Shown: in pieces, positions 23,175 through 55,363 of the stretch
Position numbering within the stretch: position 1 is the stretch's first letter
Layout: every line of letters starts with the position of its first letter
DNA from: a virus
Taxonomy: Duplodnaviria > Caudoviricetes
Length of the DNA stretch: 64,000 bases
IMG/VR virus record: IMGVR_UViG_3300021254_000027
Location: 32,001 to 96,000 of that record
Strand: one strand, 5' to 3'
Made by a program: the position numbers and the translations under genes
The notes under the pieces: generated by a model
What the model saw: the letters and a program-made list of their open reading frames with translations, nothing else
Databases searched by the model: none
What the model was told of the DNA's origin: nothing

Positions 23175-23561
23175 TTAGCCCTCCTCGTCAATAATAAGCT
23201 CCATAGCTTCAAGCTGCTTAGGCGTGAAATTCAAATCCTCAATCAAAGATACAGGGATCATACGCAAGGCGACATCAGCAGTAAACTTATTAAGTTCTGC
23301 ACGAGCCTCTTGACATTCCTGCTCTTTACCTTCAATAATCTTAAAGATGCCAGGCTCAGTTTGGATAAACTGGCCATTTTCATCTGTCTGTAAATACTTC
23401 TGCGCGAATGCGCGCTCTTGTTCAATATAAAACTCAGTTTCCTTAGCAAGCATTGCACTGTTTTTTGCAATCAAAAGGCTAAGCTTGAAAGGAAGTTCCT
23501 TATCCTTTAAAGTATCGAAAACCTCAGTAAGGTCATTAATCTGTCGAAAATTAAGTTCCAT
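23175..23561 (-). CDS. Small phage tail-cluster protein (128 aa)
   Basis: Intact ORF with AAGGAG RBS, no TAG, high-expression codon style; LPFKLSLLIAKN..FYIEQER. Confidence 0.75.
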   Translation of the reverse strand: MELNFRQINDLTEVFDTLKDKELPFKLSLLIAKNSAMLAKETEFYIEQERAFAQKYLQTDENGQFIQTEPGIFKIIEGKEQECQEARAELNKFTADVALRMIPVSLIEDLNFTPKQLEAMELIIDEEG

Positions 23562-26500: not shown

Positions 26501-29500
26501 TACTAAAAATCTAATTACTTATTCCCGGATCACCTAGATATATTATACCAGAAGAATTTTTCTATGTCAAGCCAAAATCTCCAATATGCCAAGGTGAAGT
26601 TGAACCAATTGTGCCTGCGCGAGCAGTTAAATATCCTTGCCAATTAACGCTAAATAAAGGTTTAGTATTCGGTGAATATCCAGCAAAAATAGCATATTTA
26701 TTAGCATCATTCAAAATAACTTCATTAATTCGTTTATCTTTTATCTAATCTAAAGAATTAGCAAGATCATCATATAAACTATTACAATCTTTTATATCTT
26801 GATTATATTTAGCATCTAATTGCTTTTTCTTTACATAATACTCATCATAATTACTATTTTCTTTTAACCAAAGAGCACCTGCGGCAAGCATTTCATCATA
26901 CTGTCTGGTATAACCATCTAAATGATAATTATAATACGCTCGTGCCCATTGAGAAAAATCTGTTAACCAAGCAACAGACAAACACTCATCATGACTAGTA
27001 TCTAAAACGGTATGCAGATATGAAGGAGCTCCAAAAGCTTGCCACTATGCCATCCAAGTTTCATTAGAATCTTTCCCGCCATCTGACGAACCATAATATG
27101 TATTAGCAATATAAGTACATTCTTCGCTAAATAAAAATGGCTGTGTATTAAATGATTCAATACGCATTCCCTTTCCAGAAGTATTATATTCTTGATGTAC
27201 ATGAAGTGTTGTTTTATCAGCGCTCTAAACATCTACGTAATAATAAATCCGCGTGCTATTATCATTGCCATAAGAATCTGACCATAAAGCATTAATTACA
27301 TAACGACAAGCAGTTTGAGCACCGCCTATATATGCGAGACTAGGCTACCCATTTCGCCAATGAAAATGCGTACCAGTTCGCTCTTCTTTTGAGAAATACT
27401 CAATTAATAAAGATTCTAATAATTCTTTAGATACCATATCTCCATCAGTTTTAGATATCGCTTCATTAATAGCTAAAGATACGTTATCTGCCCAAGCAGC
27501 TTGCATATAATAATGTTCAGGATCATACTAAAAAATATGCGTATAATATGATCCTATAAGATTACGTAATTTTTGTAAATAATTTAAATATAAAAGGGTT
27601 AAATCCCGTTCACGTTCTCTATCTAATATGCTTTTTTTAATATTAATTTCTGTATTTAACTATGTTAATTCACTTAGATCATTTGTAGAATACCCTAAAT
27701 ACATGTAACGACTATCTAATAAAGTATCACCAGTATGTTTTTGATATAATCCTTGATTGCTAATCATCCAATTACCAATTTTACCATATCGAGCAATAAT
27801 TCCACCAGAAGTCAATACTCCATTATTGGGGTCAACAATAAAATAATCTTTGGTTTCATCATTTAAAAATTTATTTGCCCAAGCTGTTGATAACTCTAAA
27901 CTATCTACTCCCTCTAATGGAGCCTAAGAGCTTTTTTTAGCTTCTGCATATAAAAAATATTGTGAATAGCCTAAATGATTTGTTAAATCAATAGAACCAT
28001 CAGAAGAAATATTATATGTAATTGGATCTAAATTAATATACGCGGTTTTATCAACATTACTAATTAATGATTGATTACCATTAAATACAATTTGTCCCCG
28101 TCCAGATTTACCAATAAATCCAGTGCCATTTGTACGGAATCCAAATACTTGTCCGCCTTTTTCTAATCCATATATTCCAGGAATATCAAGAGATGCATCA
28201 CCATAATCAGACCAGTTACCCATAACTACGCCAGTAAAAGCATTATTATTATCTTTCGCTCCGGCGCTAATCATTTGCGCAAGAACCGCATTTTGAGCCT
28301 CATCTATAGTTAATTTACCATCCCAAGAATTAAGTAATGATGAACTATAAAGATTGCGGCTAAATGGTATAGCCTATTTAAATGTAACACCATTTTCTGT
28401 CCATTTCAAAATGGTATAATAATATTTCATATTATCGTCCCAATACCAAGGACTATCATTAGTAGTATTGTGCTTATATGGATCTAATGAATATTCAATA
28501 TGTCCAGGCAAATAATTTGCTGCCGCTTTACTTAAATCAATAAAACGAGAATCTCTTAAGTTCGCTGCAGCAGCTCTAATACTATCTAAATCACCGACTA
28601 TATCTTGCTCTAAAATATTAGCAATAGTAGCGTTATATTCATTTTGAATCATTTGTTCTAATTCTACATAGGTAGAAGAACTGCTTCCAGAAAATGGGTT
28701 TTTATTAAAAATCCAAGTTTCACTTCCATCTTCTGCGGCTTCTTTTGCATAATAAAGTAAATAATTATTATTCGTTGTAATCGCTTGTGAAAAGATTGGA
28801 GTTTCTTTTAAAGCTAAATAATCTGGCGTGGTTAATTGATTCCACGTACCAGCATTGTTTTTATACTAAATTAACTCCCAAGTTGGATATACATCTACAA
28901 AATTTTGTCCAACAGTTTGAGTTACTGAAAAAGTACCAATATTACTTAACGGCACTGATCCATCTGATTTAAACTCTACACGATTTGGACAGCTAACACT
29001 ATATTCCGCCGCTGCATCCGCGTCTGAGATTATTTTAAATCCTGCGACATTAGATAATATATAATCTGCTGCGCCTAAAACAGTTACCTTAAAAACTGGC
29101 GGCATATCATTGCGTAAATAACCAGTGATTTTATTACCAATAAAGAACGATCCATTTCCAATTGTCCAATTCTATTTATTATTACCTTCTTCATCTTGGA
29201 GTTCTTCTTCAGCGCTCTCAGTAATAATAGTTGGAGAAAGACATTCCCAAGAAAAAATATATTTACTGTTCTAAGATTCTTCCGCAGTTTTTCCTTTTTC
29301 TACAACATTCGCTACAATAGAAAATTTTTGATTCTAAACTAAAAATTCTCCTTCTGGTGCGAGTTGAGCAAATACAATAGTATATTGACTACCCATACTA
29401 CCAGCTTGTCCAAAATGTAACTCAATTTGTGGATGATAAGTTTTACCTTTACGAGTTACAATCGCACCAATTGTATTATTTAAATAAGCTAAATCTAAAT

Positions 29501-32108
29501 AGCTTTTAATCTTAAATTTACGAGTAATCGCACGAATACGATCATTATATAGAGAACTAGCTCCTTCTAAAATAGGCGCTAATACGCTATTTGATAATTC
29601 GGCATCGGTAGGGACTGCCCACTAATCAATCATACTTAATGATGTAGGTGGTTGCCAATTAACTTCTACTCCATTATCATCTGGATCATAAGTCATTGGA
29701 GAATAATTGCCAGTATCATTATTACGAATCCAAACCTACACATAATACCAATAATCATTATATCTTACATTGTCTTTATCTTTAAGAACATAATTATTTT
29801 CATCATAAACATAAAAATCTCGTAAGCTATTATCTTCTACTATATTAGTAATACCATTTTCATCAGTTTGTGCCCGCAATAATCTAAATGTAATTTCATT
29901 TAAACTATCAAGACTGCTAGTTTCAATAGAAGAATCTACATTAGTAAAAATAAGAGGCTCGGTTTCATATGGCACATCATTTACAGTTACTATTGCTTTC
30001 CATTGTTCGCGTGCGCGAGAAGCATTAGGAGTTACTCTATAAGTATCAAAATCTTCTCCAGTAGTAGACTCTAAATATTTCCAATTTAATCCGCCTTGTC
30101 TCTCAGCTAAGACGCTAGTATCTTGCAAACATCCATACTCATAATGATACCATTGAAGCTTAGCTCCTACAGCATCTTCCCAATATTCAAAAGAAGATAA
30201 ATCGTTATCATTTTTCTTTGCATAATGAGTAATTAAAATTGCTCCAGCATCAGTTAAATGTACCCAAGCAAATTTTAAAGTTTTTTCAGTTAATAACCAT
30301 TCATATCCAGGCTGTTCCGCATATTTATTTGTTATTTCTTTTATTTTTGCACTTTTTTCTACTGTATTTAAAGTCGAATCATTCTAAATGCTTAATATAG
30401 CTTCTTGATAAGTGCTATATTCTTGGGTATAAGTCAAAGCATCTGTACCGTATTTAATATCATCATAAGTATATAAAAATACTCGATCAGTAGTGCATTC
30501 ATCTGTTGTTAATCCCAATAGTGCAGATAAATTACTTACTTGAATATTAGATGGAATATTTTCATAAGGTATTTTCTATCCATAGACGTCCCAAAAATCA
30601 TGGTCTTGCCAAAAGAAAACTCTAATTGATTCAAGAGTAAGCATATTAGAAATATCAAAAATCTTCTATTGAATTGTAGGCTCATAAAATCCATAAGTAT
30701 TACCATACATATCTTCATTAGTAAAATAAAGAGTCTGAATTGTAGATACAGATTTTTCTTCTTCAGTTGGACGAGTTTTCCCTTTTAACTCAATACGTAA
30801 TCCATATCTTCCTCGCGCAGGACGATATTTTGACAATAAGGTTTTAAAATTTGCCGAAATCCCTAATTTAGTTTCAGCTAATGGGATAGTAGGATTTTCA
30901 TTATCCCACTTCCATAAAAAATTTTTATTGTCTACATCTAAACTAGTCGCCTCATAATAATCATTGATTGATTGATTATATGCGGCGACAGTAGAAGAAT
31001 ATGCTTTGTTAATTGGATCAGTATATTTATCATATACAGATTGTTCATAAGTTTTTAATAAATTATATTCTTCTTCAGTCCAATAATAATCAGTATCAAT
31101 ATGAGCATCTTCTAAATACTAATCAAACATATTTTCAAATTCGATGCTCGTCGTATCTGCATTATTTAAAACTTGCCCCAAAGCATTTGTGTATAAAAAG
31201 TCTATTAAAGAAGTAAAAGCCTTTTCATAATTTGTTGGTTCTGATTCTGTGCCATCAAGAGAATTGTACTATAACTAAAGTTCATTAATTCTTTTATTAT
31301 GCTATTCAATCAATTGATCTATCTGAGCCTTACGTTCTTCAGTCGTTAAAGATGTATCTTGAGCAATATCCTATAAAGAATTACGATATTGTTTTTCGGC
31401 ATCTAAAATATTTTCTTCTAACTCTTTAACTTTTGCTACAGTTAAATACATTGCACTCTACTCAGGGCTATAAAAGTTTTTTGTCGTCCAAGAAGTAGTC
31501 ACATCATTTAAATGAGAAGATGCAATGTAAACTCCTCCATATCGATTATAATGAGATTCAATTGAACCCTATAGTCTTTGATGATATCTATTATACACAC
31601 TTAAAATATTCTAATATGTTGAAATTAATGAATCATCATATAGATTTTTTAAAGAATCTAACTAATTTATATAATCTTGTTCATTTTCAGTCTTACATCC
31701 ATGTTCTGGTTTATTGGCCAAATAACCTTTTGATGTAAAAGTCGAATCGTGTGTTAAATCTTCTAAGCCGACAAATCTATCAAAAGGCATTTTGAAATTA
31801 AAATTGTAAGTTGCTGCTTCGGTGCCAGCATCTACTTTTCTGCCAATTATATATTTTTGTTTAGTAAAATCTCCCATTGGAACCATTACGTAAACGACTT
31901 CGTTTTCATAATAAGTTGCAGTATCTTGAGTATACGCATCAAATTTACCATTTTCATACTCTACTTTATAAATACCTTCACTCTTCCGAGCAGTAGAAAT
32001 TACCTTTGCTTCAATAGTTTGGTCATACTTATATTTTTTAACAATGTTCTCTGATACAATACTAATTGCATCAAGTAGATTATTAGTATTAATTGCCAAA
32101 CTACTCAC
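23586..32108 (-). CDS. Giant central tail spike/hub protein (~2,840 aa)
   Basis: GTG 32108 with AAGGAG RBS; fragments 30128, 29105, 28652, 28274, 26981, 26438, 25007 and 24494 all in frame; TAA at 23586. OB-fold-like N-terminus (TIEAKVI..GIYKVEY..VYVMVPMGD), repeated G-x-I-G-x-W-x-I beta motifs, LGTTTRRW spike motif; lies directly after the tape measure. Confidence 0.75.
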
Positions 32109-32121
32109 TCCTTTTTCTCTA

Positions 32122-32170
32122 CTCTAAAAAATTTTCAAAAATCCACCCAATAAATTAATAATTACTACCC
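32122..32170 (-). promoter_or_regulatory. Copy 3 of conserved intergenic motif (candidate late promoter)
   Basis: GGGTAGTAATTA TTAA TTTATTGGGTGG ATTTTTGA AAATTTTTT AGAG, between the tape-measure terminator and the RBS of the next gene. Confidence 0.5.
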
Positions 32171-32176
32171 ATAAAT

Positions 32177-32211
32177 AAAAAAATAGGGCGAGCATTGCTC
32201 GCCCTATTTTT
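32177..32211. terminator. Terminator after the tape measure gene (potentially bidirectional)
   Basis: aaaatagggcgagc-att-gctcgccctatttt inverted repeat with A/T runs on both sides. Confidence 0.8.
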
Positions 32212-35200
32212 ATCGTCTCCAAGCATACTAAGTTGCTTGGTTAATTAGATCATTAAATGCCATTTCAATTTCATTATGATCAGTGACATTCGGGAATTCA
32301 GCAGAGATTGAAACATTCTATTCTAGCTCTTGTGGTTGCATATGAACGGTTCTAACAGAAGCGAGACTACCAAGTCCATATAACATACCAAGTGCATTAT
32401 CCATTACCGCGGATTGTAATAAATCAAATACACTAGAATCAATAGAACGAACAAATTGAACCGCGCTTAAAATCTTAGAAGTATCATCTGCATTTAACAT
32501 TAATTCTGGACTACTAGAACTACCATCTACCCAAGCTGGACCAGTATAATCTACTAAACCACCTGATAAATAAGTAGGAATATTATTAGTATAAATTGTA
32601 TTATAGGCTGCTTTTGCTGCATCTTTAACCGCTTTCTATTCTGCGGCACTCATTTCATCAGTAATAAGATTTTGAAATTGTGCGTCAATATCAGTCATAG
32701 CTCCACTTAAAGCGGCTGCTTTAGTATGATAGCCATCACTCATACCACTTAAAATAGCTCCATTATAATTATATTGCCATCCATAAGACCAATTTTTATT
32801 TTTTGCAATAGCACCGCCACCGCCTCCCTAAATAGCGGTATCTATCATTGTATCTGTGCCCGCTACTTGTTTAATCGCACCTGCAGCAGCATTAGCCAAT
32901 TCTTCATACTCTTCAATAAGGGCATTAAGAATTTCTGCATGTGCAACCCAAGCATCAGTAGTGTCATTTATATTATATAAGGTTTCTTGTAATGTATTAT
33001 TAATTTCTGTCATACCATCTTGAGCGTGCGCGACAGCTTCATCATAATCATCAATAGAAGCGGTCATATCTTCCCAATTTAATCCACTTTCAGAAGAAAT
33101 ATTATTTAAATCTTCTGAATAGGCATGTAATGCTTCATAAATTGAACCGCCAGGCTTCATTTGCTCTTCTAAATATGTCGCATAATCAGACAATCCAGAT
33201 CCCATCATTAATTGACGTACTGATTCATTAAGCTAATCTTGCAGTTTGTTAGCATTATCATATATAGAAGTTCCATATCTCTATTGTACATATTGCTAGT
33301 TAGTTAATAAAGCATTAGTAGCATTTACATATTGTTCTTGTAAGAATTGCATTGTTTCATTATGCTGTCTAGTTAATTCTTCCATTTTCTATTGACGCTC
33401 TTCAATAGTTAAAGTGGTATCTTGAGCAATACTTTGTAAATTGTCTCTATAATCTTGTTCTACTTCTAATACTTTTTGCTCCAATTCAGAAGTACGATTC
33501 GCCGCAAGTTCATTAATCTATTGTAACATATCATCAACTTGTTGCCGTGCTTTATTAACATCATCTTCATTTGCCGTATACTGATAACCAAAATTACCAT
33601 TTTCGTCGCGTGTTAATCGAACTGTAGATTTTGCATTTTGTGCTTCTTCTAATGCCTATAAAGCAAGAGCGTGTTTATATTGAAGCTCCATCATTTGTAC
33701 ATCATATTCTGTTAATTGATTCTTTTCTGCCATCGCATTAATTTCTTGCTGCAATGCTCTTAAGCGTTCTTTACTACGCTTTGTTGTTGAATCAGCAATA
33801 CTATCTTCAATATCACGATTTAATTTAGCTATATCATGTAATTCTTTAGCTGTTGATAAATACCAAGACTATTGCTCTTGATAATAAGCGTATTCATCTT
33901 GTAAACTAGACCAAGAATCCTTTAATCCGCTAATAGCCTCATCAAATGCTTCAACCGCTGCAGCAACAGCATTTTCAAATAGAGCTTGCGCATCAGTTAA
34001 GGCATTATTTGTATATTTAACTAATTGATCCTCTTGATCTCTAATATGCTCACTTAATTCATCCCACTATGTCTATAAAATTTTAGGAACCTCATTTTCT
34101 GCATAAACTGACATTTGCACACGTAAAATACGTTCTTGCTCTTTTAAAGTGTTAAGATATTCATGCGCAGAAGAAACATTAGCATTACTATAACGCAACT
34201 ATGCTTCATACATTGTCGTTAACTCACGATAATTTTGTCCTCGTCCCATAAGCTGTTGCATTTCAATATAATTTGCAATCATATCTCGTGCATGACCTAA
34301 TGTATCAATATGTTTTTGCATTTCTTCATCAGCTTTATCTAAAGTTTCACCATAAGTTTCTTCAATTTGTTTCTATAATTCATTAAGATTTTTAAGCTAT
34401 TCTAAAATTTTGGAATTTACTTCATTCATGCCTGTTGCATATTCATTGTCCTATAAAGTACCATCCGCTCTAAGATGAATAAGCTCTTGGTATTCTTCAT
34501 TAAGTGCGGCTAAATTATCTTCATATAATAGACTTTGATTAGTTAAAGATACCATAATATCATCTTGTCGCGCCAAAAAATCTTGCCATTTATTTTGGAA
34601 ATACTCTAATAATTTTATATCTCGTTCATTAATTTCTGCACGAATTTGAACTTTATACTGAATCCCTTCTAATGCAGTCTATGAAATTTTGTTTTCATTT
34701 TCTAGAATATCATTTTGAATAGTGTCTATTAAATCTAAATCTTCTTCGTAATTTTTAAGCAATTCTTCTGCGTCTTCTTTTGCTTTTTTGGCGGCATCTA
34801 ATGCTAATTGATCTTTTGCTGACTAACTTGACTAATTAAATTTATCCACTGCTGCATTATACTGACGAATAATACGATCCATATATTCACTATAATTTAC
34901 AGTACCATCGTCATTAAGTATTTCATTACCAAATTGTGAAATAATCTAATTTTTATTAATACTAAAATTAGTCCGAGCTTGATTTAAATATTCTGCTTGT
35001 AATGCGTTTTCTTTTTGTAGCGCTTTAATTTCTGCATTAATATTTTTAAGATGCTATGCGCCATAAGCACGACTTTTTAATTTGTCAATACGAGCTAATA
35101 AATTACTCTATTTTTCTAATTGATCACGAATCTCATGATAACGTTCTTTTTTTGGAACTTCATATTTTTCGATTTTCTTTTTGCCACCTCCGCCGCCACC

Positions 35201-38200
35201 TCCGCCGCCTCCGGATCCTTTTTTACCACCGCCACCTTTGGCTGGAGCTCCTTTCTTACTTACGGATTCAATTCTTGGTACCCATAATTGTTCATTTGTA
35301 TCTGACATAGAATCTGCTGAAACAGGATTATAACTACCATCAATATTTAAAACATAACCAACTGTTCGCATTTCTGTAACTTGTTTAGCACTATAAGGGC
35401 CATCCCATACAATTCTAGGCTCCCAACCAATGCCATTTAAAGCAGCAGTAATCTAATCTGCTGTCATAGTGCCACTAGACAATAAATTATTAAGAGTTGT
35501 CATAATTTTGCCTTCGGCACTTTGAGTATCAGCGTCTACAGTTAAAGTAATATTATCCATGTTATCCCATTGATCAAAAGCGCGTTGGAAAAAAGAATCA
35601 ACATTATTCAACTATTCAATAGTTCCTTCTTCATCAATAGGAATTTCAATTGGATCAATAGGAGTATTTGTTAATTCTTGCGCCCGCATATAAGCCTCAA
35701 TAAAATTATCTTCAATCGCATCTTGTGCTGCTTTAGCCTCTTCTTCTGTTCCTTCTGCCATAAGTCTAAAATTATCAATATTACTTTCAACAAAATTTTC
35801 AACTTCTTTTGTACTACCCTTAAAAGCTTTTTTTAAATCTTGTCCTAATAATTTTGTTGCTATTTTAGTTAAATCCTAAAGACCCTTTCTCCAAGTTGCG
35901 GTTCCTTTTTTACTGCTATCAGCCATTGTTTTCCAAGTTTCATCTGAAATTTCTGCTAAATCTTCTAATGCCTATTGATATAATCCTATTTGTTTTATAA
36001 ATTCTGCCAATTCAACTGCACGATCAGATAATTCTCCTGGCTCTACATCTTCAAAATTACCCATTTCTCGAGCTCGATTTTCATAATAATCCCAGTCTTC
36101 TTCAGATAATCCGGAATTTTCTTTAAGTGTATCAATGTTAGTTCGATAAGCCTCTTCTGTAAAATTTGTTTTTTGATCATCTGTTGGAGCGAATTCATCA
36201 GAATCTAAATTAGCAATATCTGCATTTTCAATTAAAGCAACTTCAATGGTATACTGACCAGAAGCATTTGTCCCAGTCATATGCGCTTCATAATAACTGC
36301 CATCTGGATTAATGCCCTAATCACTATTAATTAAATCAATATAATTTTGAGCTGCTTCTGCAGAATCAAAAGTTGTTTGAATACTCATATTAGAGTCTTT
36401 ACCGAAACGGACATGATCACCTTCAGTTAATAATGTTCTAGTCCCTCCCTATACTAATTGACCTCTTTCATTTAAAGTATATCCGGCATTTATTGCATTT
36501 GTAAAACGAGTTAAAGACTCTGCTGCTCTATCTGCGGATGTTGCTAAGTTAACATTTGCTTGTTGTAAAACCTCTTCGCCGACTTGATCTAAATTATCTA
36601 AAGTAACATTGGCAAAACCTGCATTATTTAATGCAGTTACAAGGTCTTGCCGATCTTCAATTTTCCACTATGAAAAATTTTCTTTCATTGCTCTCTAAAC
36701 AATAGCTTGATCTTGATCAATTTGAGTTTTTTGAGCATTATAACTACTTTCTCGTTCTGCTTTAAGATCTGATGAGTAACGCATCCAATTAACATTACTA
36801 GATAAAATGGCTTCAGAAATTTCATCAGCAATTGCTTCTCTAGTTCCTAATGCTTCAACGTCTGCTTCAACCAACTATTCAATTATTGATGCATTTAAGT
36901 CTCTTTGAGCAAATCCATATTTACCTTCATTTTGAACAATAGTGCCATTATTTAATAATCCCTAAGCAATTGTTACTAATGAATCAAAAGTATCAGCATT
37001 ATAATCTTCACCAAGCTCTTTAGCAATGGCCTCTCGATTAACGAATCCTTCTGAAATATTTCCTTGGCCTAAATCAGAAGCTATTTCTACAATTTTTAAT
37101 AAAACATCAGGATCATCAAGAAATTCTATAGCATGTGGGTTATTTTGATAAAATTCAGTTCTGCCTTCTTTAAATCTTGTTAAAAAATCATCTACTGTAA
37201 CATTCTAAATTCTTCCATCCGCTGTAGCTGGTAAATATTGTAAAATTCCAGTATTTAAAGCCCCGCTATTTCGGAATGAACTATAACTAATTTCATCTAA
37301 TACAGTAGATAAAAAATTTGGATCTAACATTTTTTGAGCTATTACTTCAACTCCTAATTCTGGATGTTTTTGAACATAAGCTCTATAAATTTCTAATAAT
37401 TCTTCATCAGATAAAGTATCAACAATAGATTTATTACTATCGCTATCAAATGCTTCTGCTCTTAATTTTCCAATGGCAGAAAAAATAGTTTTCCATCGAC
37501 TTAACATCTATTGTGCCTGAGCTTCATCATGGGCATCAATCTAATCATACACCCCTATAATAATATCATAAATTTCCGCCCAAGTAGAATCAGCTTCATT
37601 TTTAAACTTTGTTAATGTTTTACTATATTGATTTTCAAATGCATTTATAAAAACGTCTAAACTTCCACCCGAAGCGAGGTAATCAGAAACATTTTTATAA
37701 TCTCCTAATTCTGATAGTGTTGATTTCACAATTTGATCAAATATTTCTCGCTAAGCATCATTTAAAGAAGGATCATCCCAAAATTCACCATCTAAGTATT
37801 CTGTTGTAAATTTTTCAGTAGCAATAAATAACGCAGCTTGATTTAGAGCTTCATCAAGAGTTGAAAAACTTTCTTCCATTAATACTATACTATGATCTAA
37901 AGAATCAACTATCTTATATACAACTTGATTAGTTTCTTCATCAATAGTTGTAATAACATCCATACCTGCCATATGTAAAATATCTTTTTTTGTATTTTGT
38001 GAGTCCGCAGCAAACTATTGTCTACGATTAACATCATTCCATCCAAATAAATTTTGGTCATTCTAATAAGCCTACCAAGCATCATCAAATGTTGCATACT
38101 AGTCTTCTTCAGAACGGCCTTCATTAGCCATAGATAATAATACTGCTTTTTGTAAATTCGTCATTTTATTTGGGTCAAGTTCAAAAGCATCGTCAAATAT

Positions 38201-41200
38201 GTCTTCTGTTAATCCTAAACTCGCCCATAAATCAGAGAAATCATTATTTTTAACCAAATGAGCTATTTTATTTTTAATTACTTCAAGAATTTTAGATTCT
38301 AGGTCTCCTGCTTCAAATTCTGTTTCACTAAAACCTTTAGATATTCCTTCCATTAAATATCTACCTATTTCCATTGTACGTCTAGATGGAGATGCAATTC
38401 CAAAAGCCGCTTTAAATGCAGCAATAGTATCATCTGAAAACCCTAAAATACTAAAAAACATTGCTTGTTCTTCTGAATTCATCCCTCTAATAATACCAGC
38501 AATTAACTAAGCTCCAACACTATTAGTATCAAAAAGTTCATTATTATTTTTTAAATATTCAACATATTTTTGAATAATCGCAACAGCTTCTTGCTCTATT
38601 TCATCAGTATTTTTTAATGTATGATCTTCATTAAATAAATAACCCTACATTAAAGCATCCATAAATCCAACCATTGCATCATTATCATATTCAAAAGCGC
38701 TTCCAAAATTCCAGCCGCCTAAATTTGTCATCTATAGGATATTACTCATTGCATATCTAAAAATGTCAGATTGAGCATAATCCTACATAGAATGATTTGC
38801 CGCAAAATCTAATTCTTCATAACTTAATGCATTTTCTAATAATTCATCTATATTTAAATTCTATCCATCTTCATTTACTGCTTCAGTGATAACAGAAAAT
38901 GTTATAGGAATTTTTAAGCCAAGCTAATTATTATCTCCTAAAGCATGCATCAATTCCCAACCATAGCCGTCCTCGCTTATCGCCTTTTGCACATCATCAA
39001 TACTTTGAACATTAAAAGTATTTTTAAATGCTTGGAACATACGTATTAAATCTTGACCACTCGTAATATAGCCGCTAAAATTATATTTTTCTAATAACGC
39101 TTCTGCCATAGCTAATTGATCATTACTATTTTCTACGGCGTCCATATCAAAAAGATCACTTAATACATCATTACCATAATTAAATTGATAAGTATCAAAT
39201 TCGTCTGTATAGCCCCCTTCATTTGCATAAACTCTTTGCCATTCTTTACTATATGGATTAAACCACTATAATGTTTCTCCAGCATTCTAATAATTTAAAG
39301 AAGCTATACCTTCTCCATTTGGATTTGACCCAAATAAATTTGTTCCACGAACATTGCCATTAAATGACTAACGATGTTGTTCTAATTCAGTAGGATCTAC
39401 TAAATTTTTTAATTGCGTACTATAATCAGAAATTCTCTATGCTGCAAAATGTGTACCAGCGCCCATAATTTGCAATAAACTATGTTCTCCATCAACATTA
39501 GGATTCTAAAGTAATGCCTAGTCCCAACGTCCTCCATAATTATCTAAAACATAATCAACGATATTAACATCTGTCATTTTACCCGCGCCGTATCTAGATC
39601 CTGAACCACCAACAAAATCTGCGGCCCAATAGCCATGAGAATCCCAATTTAAAACATCATCCGCGGTTCCAGCGATAGATTCATTATAACGCTTATTACG
39701 TGTACTAAAACGAGATGCATCATAATGAATGGCATTTTCCATAGCTTCATACTATATAGTAATAACTTTAGTTTCTGGATCTAGATCAATTACTGGTCTA
39801 AATGGATCCGTGGCAGTACCAGTTCCTGTTGTTCCCTCTCCAGCTTCGGATACAATAGTAATACCCAATTCATTTGCTTCTTCATCTGTAATTTTTTCAA
39901 ATACAGGACCATTTTCGCCTTTTTTAATTAACCATGTCGCGCCATCAGTTCCAATTAAAATAGTATCACCGTTTACAGTTTTACCAGTGCCTTTGATTGA
40001 CACTAAATTACCAGAAGAGTCTACCGCCCAAACTTCACCAGATTTTGACATTAAAATTTGATAACCATTAACACTCTAATTAGTATTAGTTAATGCCTAT
40101 AATTGTCCTTTATTATCCGCGAGCCACATCTATTTTTTATCAGGGCTCATATAAATATTGTAACCATTTACGCTAGTCCCATAAGGAACTAATGCTTGTA
40201 AATTACCACTATTATCTGCTAACCACATTTTGCCATCTTCTGGACTCATATATAAAGAATATCCTTCAATAGAACCATAAGGGTTTAGTGACTATAAATT
40301 GCCTTCTCCATCAGCAAGCCACATCTAATTTTCATCAGGGCTCATATATATATTATAACCATCAATACTTTGACCAATATTAGTTAACGACTATAAATTA
40401 CCTTCTCCATCAGCTAACCACATTTTATCTTTATCAGGACTCATATATATATTATAACCATTAACACTTTGACCAACATTAGTCAACTACTATAAATTAC
40501 CTTCTTTATCAGCTAACCACATTTTGTTTTCATCTGGACTCATATATACATTATAGCCATTTATTGATCCATAAGAAGTTAATTCTTGTAAATTGCCTTC
40601 ATTATCAGCCAACCACATTTTACCATCTTCTGGACTCATATATATATGATATCCATCAGTTGATTGACCAACATTTTCTAAAGGAACTAATTCATTATTG
40701 TCATCTTTTAAATAAGGACTATTAGAAGCATCTGTCCAAAGAGTATAACCACCTTGCCCACTTAATTCTTTTAATCCAGGTTCTCCTTCATTGCTTTCGA
40801 CAAAATCTCCAATAGATTCATCTTCAATTATATACTAAGCAGAACTACCAGTAATAGGATGCAACGCATAATTATCCTAAACATAATGTACATCAGCTTC
40901 TTCAACAACTTTAATCTTAACTGTATTTCCGTTTAATCCCTAAGCTGCGTTAAATCGCTCTGTCTATATCTCTGCTCCCTATAACAAAGTAGCAATTTTT
41001 AAATTAGCTACCGCCCAAGCTTGGCTAATATCAGTTTCGTTTTCTGTTTTACCAATATTTTTAATTAATCGATCAGCTTCTTCCGCGGAATATCCTAAAT
41101 CAATTAACTATTGTTTTAAAGCTTCTAACCCCGAAAAAGTTGATAAAGAATCTAAATCTTCTAAGTCTGAAACCAAAGTTTCAATTTTTTTTAGCTATTC

Positions 41201-44200
41201 TTCATCTTTATCCCATTCAGCATCTGCTGATTTCGATGCATAATCTTTAAGAGTATTATAATAATCTAAAGTTAAAGCCTATTTTTCTTGCTAAATTTCA
41301 ATTAATTTTGCTTTATCTGTTGCATATAATTGTTCTAGAGCAGAATAATATTCCATTGCTTTAGTATAACTATACTTGGTCCATTCAACAGCATTCATAT
41401 TAGTATATTTATCAAATACAGATTCATCAAAAATACTTAAATTTGCCAATTCTTCACTAGTTAATGTTCCAAAACCTTTTAATCCCTTTTTAAATTCACT
41501 AATAGCTTTATTAGTATTAAAAATATCTTTGCCAATAGTTTTCCAATATTCTGCAGAAGATAATGTTTTTCCCGTAGAAGCAATAGTATCTTGTGTTTCT
41601 ACTAAGTCTGCACTTAACTAATCACCAGTCATTAAATTTTCATTAAGAACACCTATTTGCTCGTTTAAATCTGCCGCGCGAGAATACATTTCATCATAAG
41701 CTGAAGTTGCAGCCTCCCAATCTGAATAGTTATGCTCTCTAGCAAAAGTTGCTTGGTCTTCTTCTGACCCTTCTTTAGCTGCCTCATAAGCACTTAACCA
41801 ATCATTTCGAGAAGATAATTCAGCCTACAATGTTGCTCGACGATTACTTGCATCTGCATAAGATTCTCCATAATTATTTTCAAATTCTGCTATCCATGTA
41901 TTATATTCATTCAAAATTTCTTCATATTTTTCTTCCGCCGCGATTCGTTCATTTTCTAAGGCTTCCATTTCTGCAGTTAAAACTTCTGCTTCCATCTATT
42001 CATATAAAGCAATTCTAGTACTTGCACTTTGACGAACAAAATTTTGTAAATCTCCTTGAGTTTTAAATAATCCAGATTCCCATAGCTGCTCATATTCCTC
42101 ACGGCTTATCGTATCTTGAGTCATTATTTTTTTATTTGCTTCTAAAGATTTCTCTTTTTGTACCTATTTTTCAGCTTCAATTTCTGCCAAAGCCAATTTT
42201 TTTGCAGAATTACGAATCCCAACAGCATTTCCTTGTTTATCAAAAATAATATCACTTGGCTTAATTCTTAATGCTGCTTCAATTGTTAATCCATTATTTT
42301 TATCTAATAATAAATTTTCGATCTACTTCTAAACATTTTCTTTTATATCAGGATTATTAATACTACCAATTGAAGCTCCCTTTTGAGCTATTTCTTGAAT
42401 AGCCTATAACTACAAAGCTCCTTCACTATACTGGTCAAAACCTGAAATATAATCTAATAAATTAGCTCTATTAACTCCAGTATTTTTATTTCCAGGCTCT
42501 AATGTTTGAGTAATTAATTCATTGATTTCTCGAGCAGTTGCCGCAGATTTTCCATGTCGAACTACATCAAAATTACCGCTTTCAAATAAATCATTAATCA
42601 ATGATGCATATTCAAAATTATCTATCGCATCAGCTAAAACATTAATATTATTATTTTTTAATGATGTTAAAACTGAACCTGTAAAAGTTCCAGAACCAGT
42701 ATTAATACCTGTAAATCTATCTCCAGTTAATAGACGGTATAATCCCAAAGGATCCTATTCAACATTTTCACCTTTTAATGTAGTAAACTGCCCATCAACG
42801 AAATTATATCCTAAAGATCGTAATTCATATAAGAAATCTTCATTCGCCCAAACCTGTCCTTCGTCGCTCCAGTGCTAAGCACGCCACTAATTATCAGTAT
42901 CATCCCATAAAGATTCTGTATCTCCTAAATCCTAATAAAACTAACTATCTTCTCCGTAATAATCTATCCAAGCTGCATCATTAAATAAACTAAGTGTGCC
43001 CTCATCACGTTTTGGCATATCACTAAAAAAGGATTTCCCCTAATAAGTCTAACGAGTTTCAACAGTCTATGCAACTAATTGCTCAGCCTCTTCAACTTCT
43101 CGCTAAGCTTCATCTAATAAATAATTAGTTTTTCCTCTTGTTAATTCCTAAATCTAATTAGTTAAACCAGCATAACTACCAGTCAAAATATCTACTGCAT
43201 TGGCTTGAATACCATATTTTTCAGTAATTTCATTAATTTTATCTAACTACTCCTAATAAGTAAGAGTAGTATCATTCATAATACTACTTAAATTTTGTAA
43301 ATCAATTTTTAAATCATCTGAAGCTTTTTTATTTCGTTTAATGGCTGCTGTTGTTGCATCTGCTTTAGTTTTTAATTCCTCTTCTGCTTTAATTTGAGCC
43401 TTTCGTTGAGCATTATAGGCAATAAGCGCAGTTCCAGCTATAGCAATTGCTGCACCAATAGCAATCCAACCAGCAGGGCCTTGTAATGCTTTTAAAGCCA
43501 TTTCTATAATAAACTAAGTTATTTTTAATCCATTAAAAATACCCTATTGGGCAATAGTTCCTCCCATAGCAACGGTTTCAGCTTGCTATAATTTAATGCT
43601 AATAACTCTCTATACATTCTATAGTTTATCTATTGCTACTTGCTTTAATTTTAAAGTATTATGTAAAGTTGTTAATCCATTTAAAAGGGTTGTAGATCCA
43701 ATTAATATCGATAAGATTCCAGCAAAACGTTCTCCTGCTGAAGCGCCACTATCAAAAGCTGCTTTAAATCCAGAAGAAATACTAGCAATACCAGCACCCA
43801 ATTGAACAATTCCACCAAGCGCAATACTTAATGAATCGCTAAATTTTCTGCCACTATTATTAGCTGTATCTTCCATTTGTCTTCCAATTGATTCTGTTTC
43901 TTCATCAAGACTTTCTGCATTGGTCTAAGCATTTTGAAGTTCATTATTTAATTCTGTAACACCATCAGCACTATCTCCAGTAGCTTCAACTAATCTTTCT
44001 CCATCAGCAATAATTTCCTCTTGAGCATCACGTATTTCTTTTAATTTTGCTTTAATTTTTTCTAAAGTTTCGTTTGCAGCATCTAAAGATTCAAAACTCT
44101 TAGTGTCTCCCATAATTTCTGAAATACCTTCATTTTGAGCTAAATCAGAATCTTGTCCTCCTATTGCTTCTGTAATTGAAGCTCTTGCAGTATCTGCATC

Positions 44201-46477
44201 ATATTCTCCATCTTTCATAAATCTTTGAGATTCTTGACCAGCAAAACCTTCTTCTAATTTTTTAGTAGCTGTATCTACATCGGTCTAAGTTTGTAATCCT
44301 TGAGACATTAATTTTTTACCTAAACGATCTAATTCTTCAGCTACCTAAGCACCTGCTTCAGTAATTTCAGGAGAAACAACACTACTACTATTTTTTAATT
44401 TTCTACCCTATTCTGTTAAAGCTTTTTCTACATCACTTAATCCTAGATCCTAAGCAACAATTTTACTTTGTTCACTTAATCGAGCAGTAGCTGTTTGCAT
44501 TGTTGCAATAGCAGCTCTTTGCTCTTTACCAGACTCTAAAGATTTATATGCTTGATTTGCTTGAGTTCCACTTTCTACTTCTTTACCATATTTAACTTTT
44601 AAACCAGTAACAGTGCCTTTTGCCGCAGCAGCTTCACGAGCTTTATTTTGATACTAAGTCTACAAACTATTATACTATTCTATTTGAGCATTGGTCATTC
44701 TATGAGCATTTTGCGCTTGAACGGCATTAATACGATATAATTCACTATTATATCCATATTCTGCACTTCGAGTTGCATTAGTTGCTGCTCTATTTGAATT
44801 ACCCATTTTCGCAGCAGCATTAGAATTCATTTGAGCAGACCAAGCATTTTCTCGACTTAACTATGCAGATTCTGTCATTGTTGCAATATTCTTTTTATTT
44901 GCGGCACCACTTAAAATGGCAATATTATCTACCATTTTAGAAATGCCCTAACCTACTAATCCAGTAGTGCCTAATTTAGTTGCAAATACTCCACCAATTG
45001 TAGTTAAAATTGGTACAATACCACCTAATTTATCTATTAATGTTGTCACACCATTAATAACACCAGTAATACCATCTTGCATAGTAATAAATACTTTATC
45101 ATTTAAAATTTCAGAGTATAAACCTTGCATAGCATTTTTAGCTCGTCCAGCGGCAGCTTCCCAACTTTTCGCCCAAATTGCCTATTGTTCTTCTAATTCT
45201 CCATCAGAATTAAGCGCAACATCAACATTAATTTTATATTGATCCCAATTCTCAAACAATGCCATCAAAGAAGTATACTGACGAGCACCACCAATTGTTT
45301 GAGCAACTGCACTTTTTTGTGCTTTACTTAATGTAGACCATTTATTACCTAATTCTTCAATAACAGTGCCCATGTCGCGCAATTCGCCTGTAGCGTCAAG
45401 AACTTGAACACCAACAGTTTGCAACGCTTTAGAATATTTATTAAGATCAACACCATCTTCAAGAGTTTCGCCTAATTTTAAGCCGCCCATACGACTTAAA
45501 ATAGTATTCATAGATGTACCAACTGTTTCTGCTGACTAACGAGTAACACTTGCAACAGTAGCAATCATTGAAGACATTTGTTCCATTTTTACACCAACAG
45601 TATTAGCAGTTGCACCAACTTTTTGCATTGCAGTTGCAATTTCTTCCATACTAGAAGCAGTATTAGCACCAAGAGCAGCCATAATATCAACATAATGTTC
45701 CATTTGATCTGCTCCAACTTGATAAGCGTTCCATACCGCGGTTAAGTATTGAGACATTTCTTTTGTGCTACTACTAAAAGCAATATTCGCAGCTTTCATA
45801 GTAATTGTAGCTTTATTTATAGCTTCAGCTGTTTTATCACCCTATTGGTAGAAAATTAATGCAGCATCTGAAAATGCTAATGTAGATGCACTTAATCCCT
45901 TTGCAGCAGACTAAGCTTTTTGAGCAAAATCTGCAATTTCAGCATTACTCATTTTTGTAACTACTTGAATACTCGTTAAAGATTCATTTAAATCTTTCGT
46001 ATAACGAATTGCATTATTTACTGCACTAATAGTGCCATGAATAATACTTGAAGAAATTTGCCACTATGCAGTTTTCTTTAAATTAGTTAATAAATTCGTA
46101 AAAGCGCCATTTAAAGTAACTGTTTGCTACCGCATCTAAGCCATACTAGATAAAACTTGATTAAAAGCAGCTTGTCCTTCCGCACCAAACCCCATCATCT
46201 AATCACGAATGGTAGTTAAATTAGTTTTAGATTCCTTTAAACTTCTATTAAAAGCTGAAAAATTAATTTTCCCAGTGTCAACATTAACTGCCGCAGTTAA
46301 AGCTTTCTATAAATCTCTTGCACCCTAAACTCCATTTTTTAATTCCAAAGTATCAAATTTTAAAGGCTATACTTTAGTAATAGAATTTAAAGTATTTTGT
46401 AAATTCTACAATTCTGAACGAGCAGCTTGAGTTTCGGCAGTAACTTTTAAAGTCGATACAACAGTATTAGCCGCCAT
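32210..46477 (-). CDS. Tape measure protein, ~4,755 aa
   Basis: ATG 46477 with AAGGAG RBS; 17 track fragments from 45799 to 32500 fall in one frame; TAA at 32210. TP901-family TMP core (LGANTASSMEEIATAMQKVG..TRQSAETVGTSMNTILSR..GARQYTSLMAL), FGIASPSR and SGGLVDYTGPAWVDG..PE motifs. Confidence 0.85.
40070..40660 (-). repeat. Six tandem 96/99-nt (32/33-aa) repeats inside the tape measure gene
   Basis: Unit GY(N/H/S)(I/V/L)YMSP(D/E)xx(K/Q)MWLADxxG(N/Q)LQxL; periods 96, 99, 99, 96, 99 nt; degenerate copies flank the array. Confidence 0.9.
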
Positions 46478-48310: not shown

Positions 48311-49426
48311 TTAAATACTCTCGGTAAAACGACCAGGAGCCTGCTTACCAGAGTCTTCATAAATTGTACCAGGAATGACTTCACCAGCAACAGTAGCAGC
48401 AGCGCCACCATCATAAAGGTTAACATCTTCAACAATCTGAAGTGCAGCAATTACCTTCTTGGTCTTATCAAACTTAGTATAATCTGGGAATGCATCCATA
48501 GTAAAGGTGAAGGTAGAAGGATCACCAGTAGGAGCCATTGTAAATGTGAAGTTAGACTGAATCTTGCAGTTTGGAATTACAAACTCAGCAGGATAATCTT
48601 CGCCAGTACCCTGATCACGGAACAAGGTAGAAGCCTCAAGATAGTAAGATCCACCAAATTTACCAGCTTCAATATCAATCTGCTTTACATATTGAGTACT
48701 CTTTACATAGTAATCAACATACATAATAGAGCCAGGATTATCTGGATCAGTACCATCAACATAGTCAACAATTTCCTCTGCAGATGCAGCATTCTTATAC
48801 TTATCAAGTTCAGACTGGAACTGAGTAGCTACAGGAGCAGTAGCATTCATGATCTTGCCTGCATTAATAAGTTCAGTGTGACTCTCATTATAATTGTCAC
48901 GCCATGCAGAGAAAGCATCAGCCAAAGTAATGGTCGCGCCACTCATATAGGCAGGATCAGCACCATCAGAACCTTGAAGTGGGATATCCATAGGAACACG
49001 ATTAGTATTAATAGAACCATCATCATTCTTTAACATGATATACAAAGAACCAGCCTTCGCAGGAACATGAGAAAGAGTTAACTGACCATTCTTAACCTGG
49101 ACTTCTTCAGTAGTATGAATAAAAATTGGATGATCTTCATCAGCATCCATAAATCCAGCACCAGAAAGAATAGAGAAGCTTTCTGGAGAAATCAAAGCAT
49201 CTTCCATTGTAAAGGTAACAGTACGGTCACCTTCCCAAGCAACCAAACGAGGGTTACCGCGTCCACCCTGAGCATAAACAGTGGTACTCTGGCCTTCAAG
49301 AGATGAAGTCTTCAAAGTATCAAAATACATAACAGGCATATCCTTATCGAGATAAAGCTTGCCGAAATAACCGCCAGTCTTTCTCTTAAGAACGACGTCG
49401 CAAATTTCGCGTACACCAAATTTCAT
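48311..49426 (-). CDS. Major tail tube protein (371 aa)
   Basis: Intact TAG-free ORF; AQGGRGNPRL..W..DRTVTFTMEDAL and IPNCKIQSNFTFTMAPTGDPSTFTFTMDA motifs; position, strong RBS and downstream terminator. Confidence 0.75.
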   Translation of the reverse strand: MKFGVREICDVVLKRKTGGYFGKLYLDKDMPVMYFDTLKTSSLEGQSTTVYAQGGRGNPRLVAWEGDRTVTFTMEDALISPESFSILSGAGFMDADEDHPIFIHTTEEVQVKNGQLTLSHVPAKAGSLYIMLKNDDGSINTNRVPMDIPLQGSDGADPAYMSGATITLADAFSAWRDNYNESHTELINAGKIMNATAPVATQFQSELDKYKNAASAEEIVDYVDGTDPDNPGSIMYVDYYVKSTQYVKQIDIEAGKFGGSYYLEASTLFRDQGTGEDYPAEFVIPNCKIQSNFTFTMAPTGDPSTFTFTMDAFPDYTKFDKTKKVIAALQIVEDVNLYDGGAAATVAGEVIPGTIYEDSGKQAPGRFTESI

Positions 49427-52605: not shown

Positions 52606-53214
52606 TTAACCCTCCTCATTAGAGGTTTTCTTTACAACATTATACTTCGGAGAAGTTCTGCGCCCAGAAGTTTCCTTAGCTGCAGCTGGCTGTACTCGAC
52701 GACCAGTAGGAGTCTCAACTTTCATTCCACTGGATGTTTCTTCTGCAGCAGCAGCTGCTTCTGCTTCAAGTTCAGCCTTATGCTTAAGCGCAAGAGATAT
52801 ATCAAATCCAGTTTTCTCCTTAATCGCACTAATCTTACGAGTATCAGTCACTGGAAGCTCAAGCGCATACTTCTGAACCAAATCAATAACGCCGCCAGGT
52901 GCAAAATCAAGACAGTCTAATAGGGCATCAACTGAGCCATTCTTTAGAAGATCAATAACTCCCTTGTCGTCTAAATAATACTCAGGTTCTACGTGAGATG
53001 TAGTCTCATTCACCGTTTCGGCATCTTCAATAAATAATTCATCGCGCAAAATAGAGAGCCCACCGCTCTTTTGAGCTAGCGCAATCAATTCTGCCGCAGG
53101 CAGCATCTTAGTCTCACCGGGTGCGAATTCTCGGCGTACGCCCAAGTCTGGCACTCTATAGATTACGATGGAATTACTTCTATTGCGAACCTTTACCTTC
53201 TTGTTAGTATCCAT
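52606..53214 (-). CDS. Head-associated hypothetical protein (202 aa)
   Basis: Real start likely ATG 53214 (MDTNKKVKVRNRS) after AAGGAG; TAG-free; directly follows the capsid gene. Confidence 0.7.
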   Translation of the reverse strand: MDTNKKVKVRNRSNSIVIYRVPDLGVRREFAPGETKMLPAAELIALAQKSGGLSILRDELFIEDAETVNETTSHVEPEYYLDDKGVIDLLKNGSVDALLDCLDFAPGGVIDLVQKYALELPVTDTRKISAIKEKTGFDISLALKHKAELEAEAAAAAEETSSGMKVETPTGRRVQPAAAKETSGRRTSPKYNVVKKTSNEEG

Positions 53215-53242
53215 ATTTTTTAAACTCCTTTTTCTCTTACGC

Positions 53243-53266
53243 GCGGGCGCGTATATACGCGCCCGC
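53243..53266. other. Perfect 24-bp GC-rich palindrome 3' of the capsid gene
   Basis: gcgggcgcgtat|atacgcgcccgc; no U-tract on the coding strand. Confidence 0.7.
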
Positions 53267-53280
53267 ACAATTTATATTAA

Positions 53281-53436
53281 TTAAGCTTTAACTACGTAAT
53301 AAGTCTTTCCTTCAACAAGTTCAGAATCAGAGGTCTTTACGTAATTATTATCAACCTTTTCATAGTAAGTTCCAATGTTAGCAACATCAGGATTAGTTAC
53401 AACTTCATACTCAGGCTCAGTTACCGCCGGGCTAGG
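53281..53436 (-). CDS. Predicted +1 frameshift C-terminal extension of the major capsid protein (50 aa)
   Basis: Capsid frame ends TCT CCC TAG; the +1 frame reads CCT AGC CCG.. = PSPAVTEPEYEVVTNPDVANIGTYYEKVDNNYVKTSDSELVEGKTYYVVKA-TAA and has no credible own start or RBS. Confidence 0.7.
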   Translation of the reverse strand, partial: PSPAVTEPEYEVVTNPDVANIGTYYEKVDNNYVKTSDSELVEGKTYYVVKA

Positions 53437-54502
53437 GAGATACCGACTGCTGATCGCCGGTATATACTCCAAACTGACCTTCAAGGTCCTTATTTACATA
53501 GATACAAATGTCAGGAGTCATAACTACACCGACACCGACCTTCTTGTATACCTGGATCTCACGAGAACGGTCCTTGTTAACATATTCATCAACAATAGTA
53601 GAACCTTCCATGACAATCTTAACAGGCTTTACATTTCCAGGAAGAATGTAACAATAGCCAGGATCAATAACCTTAGTAGTATGAGTTGCATCAGTGAATC
53701 CCTGAGGGAGAATGTTAATAATATGGTTACGATAAGATGCGAAACGTCCATTGTTCCACAAAGTATCCTTCATATTATCAGACCAACGTACATAAGTACC
53801 ATTATCAGTTTCAGGAAGAATAGTTGCGGCAAACTCTTCAGTGCAATAGATGGTAGGAGTACCATAAGCAGAAGAGATAGCGAGCAAGCGATCAAAAGCC
53901 TGCTGATCAAAACCATTTACCTTAACAGTATTAAGAGCAGGGAGCTGAGTCAAACCTTCCTTAAGAGCAGCACCGACTTCCCACTGAATGAGCTCTTCGA
54001 TACCCTCCATAACAATCTGAGTAACCTCAGCAAAATCAGCACGTCCATCCAAGAACTCTTCAAGACCAATCTGCGCGGCTCCGCCGATAGCACTGGTCTG
54101 AACTTCGATTGGAGTATCCTTACCAAGCTTAAATACTTCGTAGATACCAGCCAAACCAACCTTGGTAATGAACTGCTTTGCACGCTGACGATCATGCTTA
54201 CGCCAGAACATAGTAGAATTGCCCTGAGCGATGGTCTTTACTTCAGCAAACTTCATATATTCTTCTTCAACCTTCTTAGGAAGAATATCGTCCATAGTCT
54301 CCTCAATGATGGAGAAGATAGTATTCTTATTCTCACGATAAAGTGCGAATGTACCAGCGAGCTCGTTCAATTCCTTACGAAGAGTCTCATTAAGAGCATC
54401 ATAAGACAAATTCTCGCCATTGAATGAGTAAGCAACAGGAGCAGAGCGATCAGCCTTAGCAGTTGCTTTCATTAACTTAACAAGTTCATTTCTTTCCAAC
54501 AT
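53417..54502 (-). CDS. Major capsid protein (356 aa to TAG 53432; 361 aa if TAG is read as Gln, to TGA 53417)
   Basis: Follows the protease/scaffold and accessory head genes; strong AAGGAG RBS, high-expression codon bias, no internal TAG; size fits an HK97-fold capsid. Confidence 0.8.
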
Positions 54503-54523
54503 AGCTTTTCTCTCCTTTCCTTA

Positions 54524-55363
54524 TTACTTTACACGCATTACCTTAACGGCCGGCTGCATGTCACCTAAATTATAAATCTTAACAACCTGCCACTGGAATG
54601 GGGAATTGGTAGCGCCAGTTGCACTCAAATAACCATGAGCATTAGGAGCAAGAACAGAACCTAAAGTCACAGTAGCATCAGCAATAGTATTAGTAGTGAA
54701 AATATCGCCTTCGTGAGTCTTAAATACACGAGGAACCATCAAACCAGCCCTATTGTTAGCATTAAAACCATCAGCACCAGGAGCCTTACCAGTACGGTCA
54801 GGCTGTGCATACTCAGCCATCTGAGGAACATTCAAGCGCTCTACCTCATAGCTATTACCAATAGCATAATGATTACGACCATAATCAGGAGCTACACCAG
54901 CTGCATTATCATGAGCATCTGGATAAATCTCAACCTGAGCCTGAATCTTCTTCATCATATCCCAATCAGCAGAAGTCTGATAACCATTAATACGAACGCC
55001 ATTAGGACCAAAAGCCTGACCAACGCCCATACCAGTAGCCTGAGCACCAACACCAACTGGAGAATAAACACGACCATTATAGTCACGACGAATCATTGCG
55101 AAGTCCTGATCGGTTTCGTGATCACGATAAACCTTAACTTCATTGAAAACAAGCATCCATTCACCGATGCCAGAGAAATTAACTACGCCATTAGCATAGT
55201 CGTACTTTACGAACTGACCATTCTCAAGAATATCAATATCTGCGGCAACAGGCAACTGAGCGTAAATTTCGCCAGTACGCTGAGCACTGAGATGGTTTGG
55301 CTCGACCTGACCGAAGCCATAGGTTACGAATTTAGCTTCGGGAGATAAACGTGTAAAAGCCAT
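54524..55363 (-). CDS. Capsid accessory/decoration-like protein (279 aa)
   Basis: Intact TAG-free ORF between scaffold and capsid; GQVEPNHLSAQRTGEIYAQLP..LENGQFVKYD; high-expression codon style. Confidence 0.65.
   Translation of the reverse strand: MAFTRLSPEAKFVTYGFGQVEPNHLSAQRTGEIYAQLPVAADIDILENGQFVKYDYANGVVNFSGIGEWMLVFNEVKVYRDHETDQDFAMIRRDYNGRVYSPVGVGAQATGMGVGQAFGPNGVRINGYQTSADWDMMKKIQAQVEIYPDAHDNAAGVAPDYGRNHYAIGNSYEVERLNVPQMAEYAQPDRTGKAPGADGFNANNRAGLMVPRVFKTHEGDIFTTNTIADATVTLGSVLAPNAHGYLSATGATNSPFQWQVVKIYNLGDMQPAVKVMRVK

Follow-up and report, generated by a model that had tools for sequence, protein, structure and literature searches.

The major capsid gene described here ends in CCC-TAG, in a gut phage that reads TAG as glutamine in its late genes, and the locus raises the question of what the ribosome makes of this last codon: a stop, a glutamine or a point of slippage into the +1 frame. 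The window, by which we mean the whole stretch of DNA that was analysed, covers 64,000 nucleotides (positions 32,001 to 96,000 of the IMG/VR record IMGVR_UViG_3300021254_000027, Caudoviricetes), and its coordinates are used below unless the contig is named.

The capsid gene and its three possible ends

The gene was identified as encoding an SPbeta-like major capsid protein of the YonB family with an HK97 fold, because its homologues carry the YonB domain (PF27364), because portal, protease and scaffold-type genes precede it and neck genes lie on its other side, and because the predicted structure of a relative with the extension in frame resembles HK97-fold capsids and encapsulins (E 5e-8). 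There was also a 23% match to a protein of Bacillus phage PJN02 that is annotated as major capsid protein. The open reading frame (54502..53432, minus strand) encodes 356 amino acids under translation table 11, and all 15 of its Gln codons are CAG. A re-reading of the minus-strand frame confirmed that there is no internal TAG in the 0 frame and that the only TAG is the terminal one, directly after CCC, in a 3' end that reads TCT CCC TAG CCC GGC GGT AAC TGA. The features of the locus are:

53432..54502, minus strand: gene for the major capsid protein (SPbeta YonB family, HK97 fold), read in the 0 frame to the TAG for 356 aa
53431..53437, minus strand: putative shift site CCC-UAG-C; the P-site CCC can re-pair on CCU, the A-site UAG is reassigned, and the first +1 codon is AGY (Ser)
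53417..53434, minus strand: 0-frame readthrough tail, Gln and 4 residues up to TGA, for a 361-aa product; evidence also from P0121, and similar tails in all alleles
53281..53433, minus strand: +1-frame extension, for a 406-aa product; a short linker and an acidic, Tyr-rich module of about 45 aa, predicted to form a small beta-rich fold
53440..53463, minus strand: 8-bp 5' RNA hairpin (-11.1 kcal/mol) that stops 2 nt short of CCC; candidate stimulator of the +1 shift
53241..53268, minus strand: GC hairpin after the capsid gene, with no U tract; a general feature of the locus, not specific to frameshifting

The three product lengths given in a first-pass annotation of the window (356, 361 and 406 aa) were reproduced from the sequence. 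Termination at the TAG would give 356 aa; with TAG read as Gln the product is 361 aa and ends at 53417; and the +1 frame entered from CCC/CCU has 50 open codons (53433..53284) before a TAA at 53283-53281, for 406 aa. The computed masses are 39.9, 40.4 and 45.5 kDa, respectively. The 0-frame tails past the TAG were 5 to 6 residues long, Gly-rich and similar in all alleles.

An open frame of 50 codons was obtained by chance in 6% of shuffles and is not rare in itself; the case for frameshifting is carried by homology and conservation. CCC is an uncommon codon in this phage, making up 23 of the 555 Pro codons, and 0.11% of all codons, in the late genes, and the capsid gene has the only in-frame CCC-TAG among the open reading frames called in the 105-kb contig. 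CCC-TAG also looked avoided elsewhere, but all NNC-TAG pairs are scarce (106 observed against 198 expected), and the avoidance was not significant. The codon after CCC begins with U in all alleles. Other shifts were also rejected: the -1 frame is shut after 4 codons at the window site and after 4 to 15 codons in all alleles, and a -2 shift would allow no re-pairing.

The module in the +1 frame and its relatives

The 50-aa extension past CCC was borne out as a protein-coding segment, being homologous to the C-terminal module that capsid homologues of 397 to 409 aa carry in frame. Among the close capsid homologues, many have the 45-residue Tyr-rich module in frame and others have only short Pro/Gly/Thr/acidic tails; where it occurs at the capsid position, the module is otherwise always the C-terminus of the capsid protein. 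In its out-of-frame form it had pN/pS values of 0.19 to 0.53, with purifying selection in 9 of the 9 pairs tested.

AlphaFold modelled the module as a small beta-rich unit (pLDDT 93), and in the model of an in-frame relative it lies behind a linker of low confidence. The module is probably exposed on the surface on a flexible linker, and we infer a surface role, probably as a binding or decoration domain. A profile search returned 787 representatives of the module, mostly as tandem repeats in larger proteins, and one module-bearing protein also carries an endosialidase chaperone domain, as tail fibres typically do. A TAG-free protein of 665 aa (contig 31139-33136, overlapping window 1-1136 on the minus strand) has one weak copy (E 4e-5). 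The module had no match in Pfam, PHROGs, the PDB sequences or the Atlas, and fold searches with a 47-aa model gave no clear match (best structural Z 3.2, which is not proof of a new fold); the model is too small for the seven-strand sandwich of Ig-like or FN3 domains.

The first-pass annotation had pointed to related capsid genes as the place to look for a CCC-stop pair followed by an open +1 frame. CCC-TAG-Y with an open +1 frame of 50 to 70 aa, here called the cassette, was found in 13 or more other assemblies drawn from JGI, ENA and Logan, in two capsid lineages. Lineage A, to which the window belongs, includes L047/L059, L113, L170 and L171, and lineage B includes L048/49, L050-52, L053/54 and L315/316. 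The capsid DNA of the two lineages is 83% to 85% identical in nucleotide sequence, whereas their modules are only about 20% identical and belong to different subtypes. CCC preceded the first stop-like codon in 10 of 203 distinct capsid 3' ends, and 9 of these 10 were cassettes with a +1 frame of 50 to 70 aa; the tenth had no +1 open reading frame. Relatives that lack the module and end in Pro used CCT/CCA-TAA in 13 of 14 cases. TAA closes 161 of the 203 capsid genes, yet all cassette alleles keep TAG and none has TAA or TGA. No CCC-TAA or CCC-TGA cassette was present in standard-code or TGA-recoded relatives among the 203 ends, the CCC-TAG pattern was absent from 5 near-complete relatives without the cassette, and every carrier whose code could be judged was recoded.

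In-frame, out-of-frame and module-less tails were interspersed on the capsid tree, and 3' ends have therefore been exchanged between phages. Lineages A and B probably share one origin of the cassette, and because there are only these two lineages, the fact that the G of TAG is conserved carries little weight.

Since 13 or more assemblies, made from different samples and by different assemblers, share one frame offset, an indel error, which the annotation had listed as a way in which its proposal could fail, is largely excluded. A single C fewer in the C run would place the module in frame, as it is in many siblings, and the many module-less capsids indicate that its loss is tolerated; the window could on these grounds hold an assembly error or a dead remnant left by a one-base insertion that removed the module from the protein. 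Nevertheless, neighbouring genes of 2400 to 4755 aa are free of frame breaks, and the +1 frames are intact and under purifying selection in two lineages with modules of about 20% identity. We regard assembly error as largely excluded and a dead remnant as unlikely, and the two together as carrying a very small probability.

The +1 frame had also been described as having no start of its own. This holds strictly for L050-52, in which an in-frame TAA two codons before the site leaves the module with no possible start; the window has a possible TTG at 53472, 13 codons upstream, which is used by gene callers but is not conserved. Gene callers annotate frames of 62 to 64 aa (83 aa in L048/49) in several assemblies, as would be expected if the +1 frame were translated as a separate small protein from a TTG or ATG inside the capsid gene. 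However, the start differs between lineages (TTG, ATG) and has only a weak Shine-Dalgarno-like sequence, the +1 peptide upstream of the site is not conserved, separate initiation would leave CCC-TAG unexplained, and the module is elsewhere at this position part of the capsid protein. Given the in-frame stop in L050-52 and the differing starts, separate initiation is very unlikely.

The 5' hairpin of the window had a z score of -2.65, and a hairpin ending 2 to 5 nt before CCC could be folded in every cassette allele, with energies of -6.4 to -12.1 kcal/mol. The region 5' of CCC had a mean of -9.6 kcal/mol in 7 cassette alleles compared to -4.5 in 20 relatives without the cassette, a comparison of related sequences in which the p value overstates the difference. 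The hairpin uses CCG and TCG, codons that are rare in these genes. Its changes between alleles comprise one compensatory C-G to G-C pair and G-C to G-U variants, so that covariation amounts to about one event only, and it is weak in some lineage B alleles (-6.4 kcal/mol, z -1.0). We consider it a candidate stimulator of the +1 shift. On 70S ribosomes, +1 shifting was stimulated by upstream hairpins that adjoined the E site when release factor was absent or the A site was slow (PMC6321510), although the stem tested in that study had 12 bp and was much stronger than the 8-bp hairpin of the window.

The first-pass annotation had further noted that the +1 extension ends just before a GC hairpin (53268..53241, -26.3 kcal/mol, z -4.4). 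The position is correct, but similar hairpins also follow the capsid genes of module-less relatives, and this hairpin is therefore not part of the recoding signal. A search by folding for a conserved 3' stimulatory structure found none (z 0.4). Taken together, the conserved site, the selected module in the +1 frame and the 5' hairpin make a programmed +1 frameshift at the end of the capsid gene very likely.

Decoding of UAG in the phage

Reading TAG as Gln restored open reading frames of up to 4755 aa in the window, and the share of Gln in relatives at aligned window codons was 0.60 for TAG and 0.54 for CAA; we assign TAG to Gln in the late genes. The two frames richest in the codon were a 4755-aa frame with 119 TAGs (32210-46477), a probable tape measure by its position, and a late frame of 2878 aa with 43 TAGs (23586-32222). 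The replication genes of the contig are nearly free of TAG. One early gene (contig 103318-104004) is closed by TAG at the very place where its homologue has TAA, so that TAG is a genuine stop in one early gene at least. This pattern fits a host with the standard code and a change of code late in infection. In genome size and mixed codes, the two features compared, the phage resembles the Agate clade (10.1101/2021.08.26.457843).

The contig, which is 105.5 kb long and 61% complete, contained no tRNA genes and thus no CUA suppressor tRNA. Three relatives with 80% to 89% capsid identity had tRNA clusters with CUA-anticodon tRNAs and tRNA-Ser(GCU), from which we infer a suppressor tRNA for the window phage. 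The tRNA-Pro genes in these three relatives had the anticodon UGG, and one relative also had AGG; no GGG was present in the stretches read. A release factor gene was sought in 5 relatives and none was found.

Four of the CUA tRNAs (L165:4496-4588, L166:11268-11356, L168:13356-13448 and L169:3515-3606) are 89 to 93 nt long and have a long variable arm, a weak or A-U first pair and G73. They are called Pyl by ARAGORN, yet TAG aligns with Gln, and their shape is unusual for a Gln tRNA. The 193-kb relative G001 (L165-L167) has about 70 tRNA genes, apparently in two similar sets, tRNA-Pro AGG included.

In recoded loci, the capsid genes had 22-fold fewer TAGs than the genes around them (0.54 versus 12 per 1000 codons), for which reason UAG is probably a slow sense codon. 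In the window, the high-copy virion genes (48311-49426, 52606-53268, 53432-55363 and 23175-23561) have no internal TAG and prefer CAG, whereas the low-copy genes use CAA and TAG.

How UAG is decoded bears on whether the capsid site is a classical shifty stop, at which RF1 would end most chains to give products of 356 and 406 aa, with 361 aa as leakage, and which may predate the code change. The early gene that TAG truly ends is in keeping with this, as is the lack of a phage release factor in the 5 relatives. So are the C-termini of the family: Asn-Pro is the commonest, being found in 31 of the 53 short tails of close relatives (a count that takes in a few cassette genes cut at TAG), usually as CCT/CCA-TAA, and it also stands right before the TAG of lineage B. 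This speaks against the explanation that we prefer and fits TAG as a real stop, now or formerly. The backup stop 4 to 5 codons past the TAG was rejected as a sign of readthrough, because in-frame carriers stop after 1 to 11 codons in the equivalent frame; such a nearby stop is expected by chance, as the shifty-stop reading would have it.

The late genes argue in the other direction. For a gene with 119 TAGs, the computed full-length yield is 0.2% at 95% readthrough per codon and 30% at 99%, so that about 98% readthrough or better is required, and the late genes with 43 and 119 TAGs imply that RF1 must terminate at about 1% to 2% of UAGs or fewer. Furthermore, TAG occurs within the capsid core of at least ten recoded relatives. 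These two observations make 361 and 406 aa the most likely main late products, and a site that mainly terminates is unlikely.

On a distant branch, the capsid is extended by in-frame stop readthrough into a domain of 210 to 330 aa behind a Pro-Glu linker (L323-L327, L308, L313). In L323-327 readthrough is at TGA; the neighbouring genes contain no TGA, no UCA tRNA was detected and the code is apparently standard. The phage L313 (L313:1399-3492) reads TGA as Trp, and its capsid readthrough is at TAG; the extension domains of L313 and L325 are homologous (28% over 159 aa). The use of TAG as the gate in the TGA=Trp phage, where standard-code homologues use TGA, also counts against a shifty stop, and this one case suggests that a reassigned codon leaks too much to gate an extension, which fits a role as a pause codon in the window. 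Three further TGA=Trp relatives (L331, L334 and L337) have about 27 open codons after the capsid TAG, the last of which encode a shared PDSLFLDP before a second TAG; this stretch is either a conserved peptide or a conserved DNA element.

The limit on RF1 set by the 43- and 119-TAG genes also leaves unsupported, as stated, the proposal of the first-pass annotation that competition between RF1 and the suppressor tRNA sets the ratio of the three products. If RF1, suppressor tRNA and slippage did compete, the code change could tune the number of module-bearing subunits over time. All alleles keep TAG in a family in which TAA is the usual end, the terminal TAG is the sole TAG of the window capsid gene, and TAG is a stop in early genes and Gln in late ones, all of which would be expected of such a switch; changes in the overlap between alleles were silent in 4 of 7 cases in the 0 frame versus 2 of 7 in the +1 frame, a tendency that keeps the Gly-rich 0-frame tail. 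However, seven substitutions in two lineages are too small a sample. In addition, the capsid is presumably made after the switch, since portal and terminase need TAG readthrough, which would leave a short window for any contest, and a ratio that varies with time has no evident gain when siblings live with 0% or 100% of the module. We consider regulation of this kind quite unlikely. As a tentative and rather doubtful extension of the pausing role, the share of module-bearing subunits might depend on suppressor tRNA supply and RF1 activity during the code switch and report them, so that the site would act as a prfB-like sensor of the state of the code.

A proposed mechanism and its known counterparts

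Our preferred explanation, reasonably probable as a whole, is a +1 shift on CCC-UAG-Y with UAG read mostly as Gln late in infection, 361 and 406 aa as the main late products and 356 aa as a minor one. When CCC occupies the P site and UAG the A site, the ribosome would pause, and peptidyl-tRNA-Pro would re-pair from the rare CCC onto the common CCU. The next codon, AGY, would be read as Ser, and the 50-aa extension with the module would be added. Ribosomes that do not slip would mostly insert Gln at UAG by means of the phage CUA tRNA, add five residues in all and stop at the TGA, and the RF1 product would be minor at the time when capsid is made, unless the context is special. The reassigned UAG would in this way be the slow codon in the A site, a role that falls to a true stop in SPP1 or the Listeria phages, and the capsid would contain a fraction of subunits with the module. 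Siblings have it on all subunits, when it is in frame, or on none; the proposed state of cassette carriers is that some subunits have it.

If this is true, frameshift sites can include a reassigned codon. The site would give the virion's most abundant protein three C-termini that can be told apart, corresponding to termination, Gln insertion and slippage at one natural UAG, and it bears on how RF1 is blocked at UAG and how fast the suppressor decodes in recoded phages. The capsid family supplies natural controls, since its genes may have the module in the capsid frame, have it out of frame or lack it. As the first-pass annotation had supposed, no prior description of such coupling came to light: our literature search found no frameshift or extension at a recoded codon within its coverage, outside which most subscription journals lie.

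In SPP1, gp17.1* is made by a +1 shift at CCCUAA, where ribosomes pause at the rare CCC and move to the common CCU when the next codon is slow (PMC6316719). As in gp17.1/gp17.1*, the shift in the window would take place at the last codon, and some copies of a major virion protein would gain a C-terminal domain that is not essential. The SPP1 site differs in having a true UAA stop, in a tail tube gene with an FN3 domain, whereas the window has a reassigned UAG, a capsid gene, a Tyr-rich repeat of 45 aa and a 5' hairpin. The Listeria phages PSA, A118 and A500, as summarised in PMC5009743, shift +1 on CCC in structural genes, at CCC_UGA and CCC_UCC. PSA cps has a sense codon in the A site (CCC_UCC), and a sense-codon site in a capsid gene thus has a precedent there; CCC_UGA in tsh, the 3' pseudoknot of PSA cps, the standard code and extensions described for this class as Ig-like set these systems apart from the window.

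The code-15 gut phages, which have suppressor tRNAs of their own, share with the window TAG=Gln in structural genes and few TAGs in replication genes, as described in three papers (10.1101/2021.08.26.457843; PMC9523058; Phassvirus, PMC10607447), and CUA tRNAs are found in relatives of the window phage. A word search of these papers returned no case of frameshifting at a reassigned codon. Identity between the Phass-1 homologue and the window capsid protein is 51%, and the Phass-1 gene ends in TAA without an extension.

The prfB gene of E. coli, which encodes RF2, is autoregulated by a +1 shift at CUU-UGA-C whose rate is set by how fast the A-site stop codon is filled. An internal Shine-Dalgarno duplex just upstream acts as the stimulator, and the site senses release factor. 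It was this shift site that served as the test site in the study of upstream hairpins (PMC6321510). The competitor of the shift is a release factor in prfB and probably a suppressor tRNA in the window, where the output would be a virion domain. The window site would belong to the SPP1/PSA type of +1 shift, set apart by its reassigned codon, its 5' hairpin and its unnamed module.
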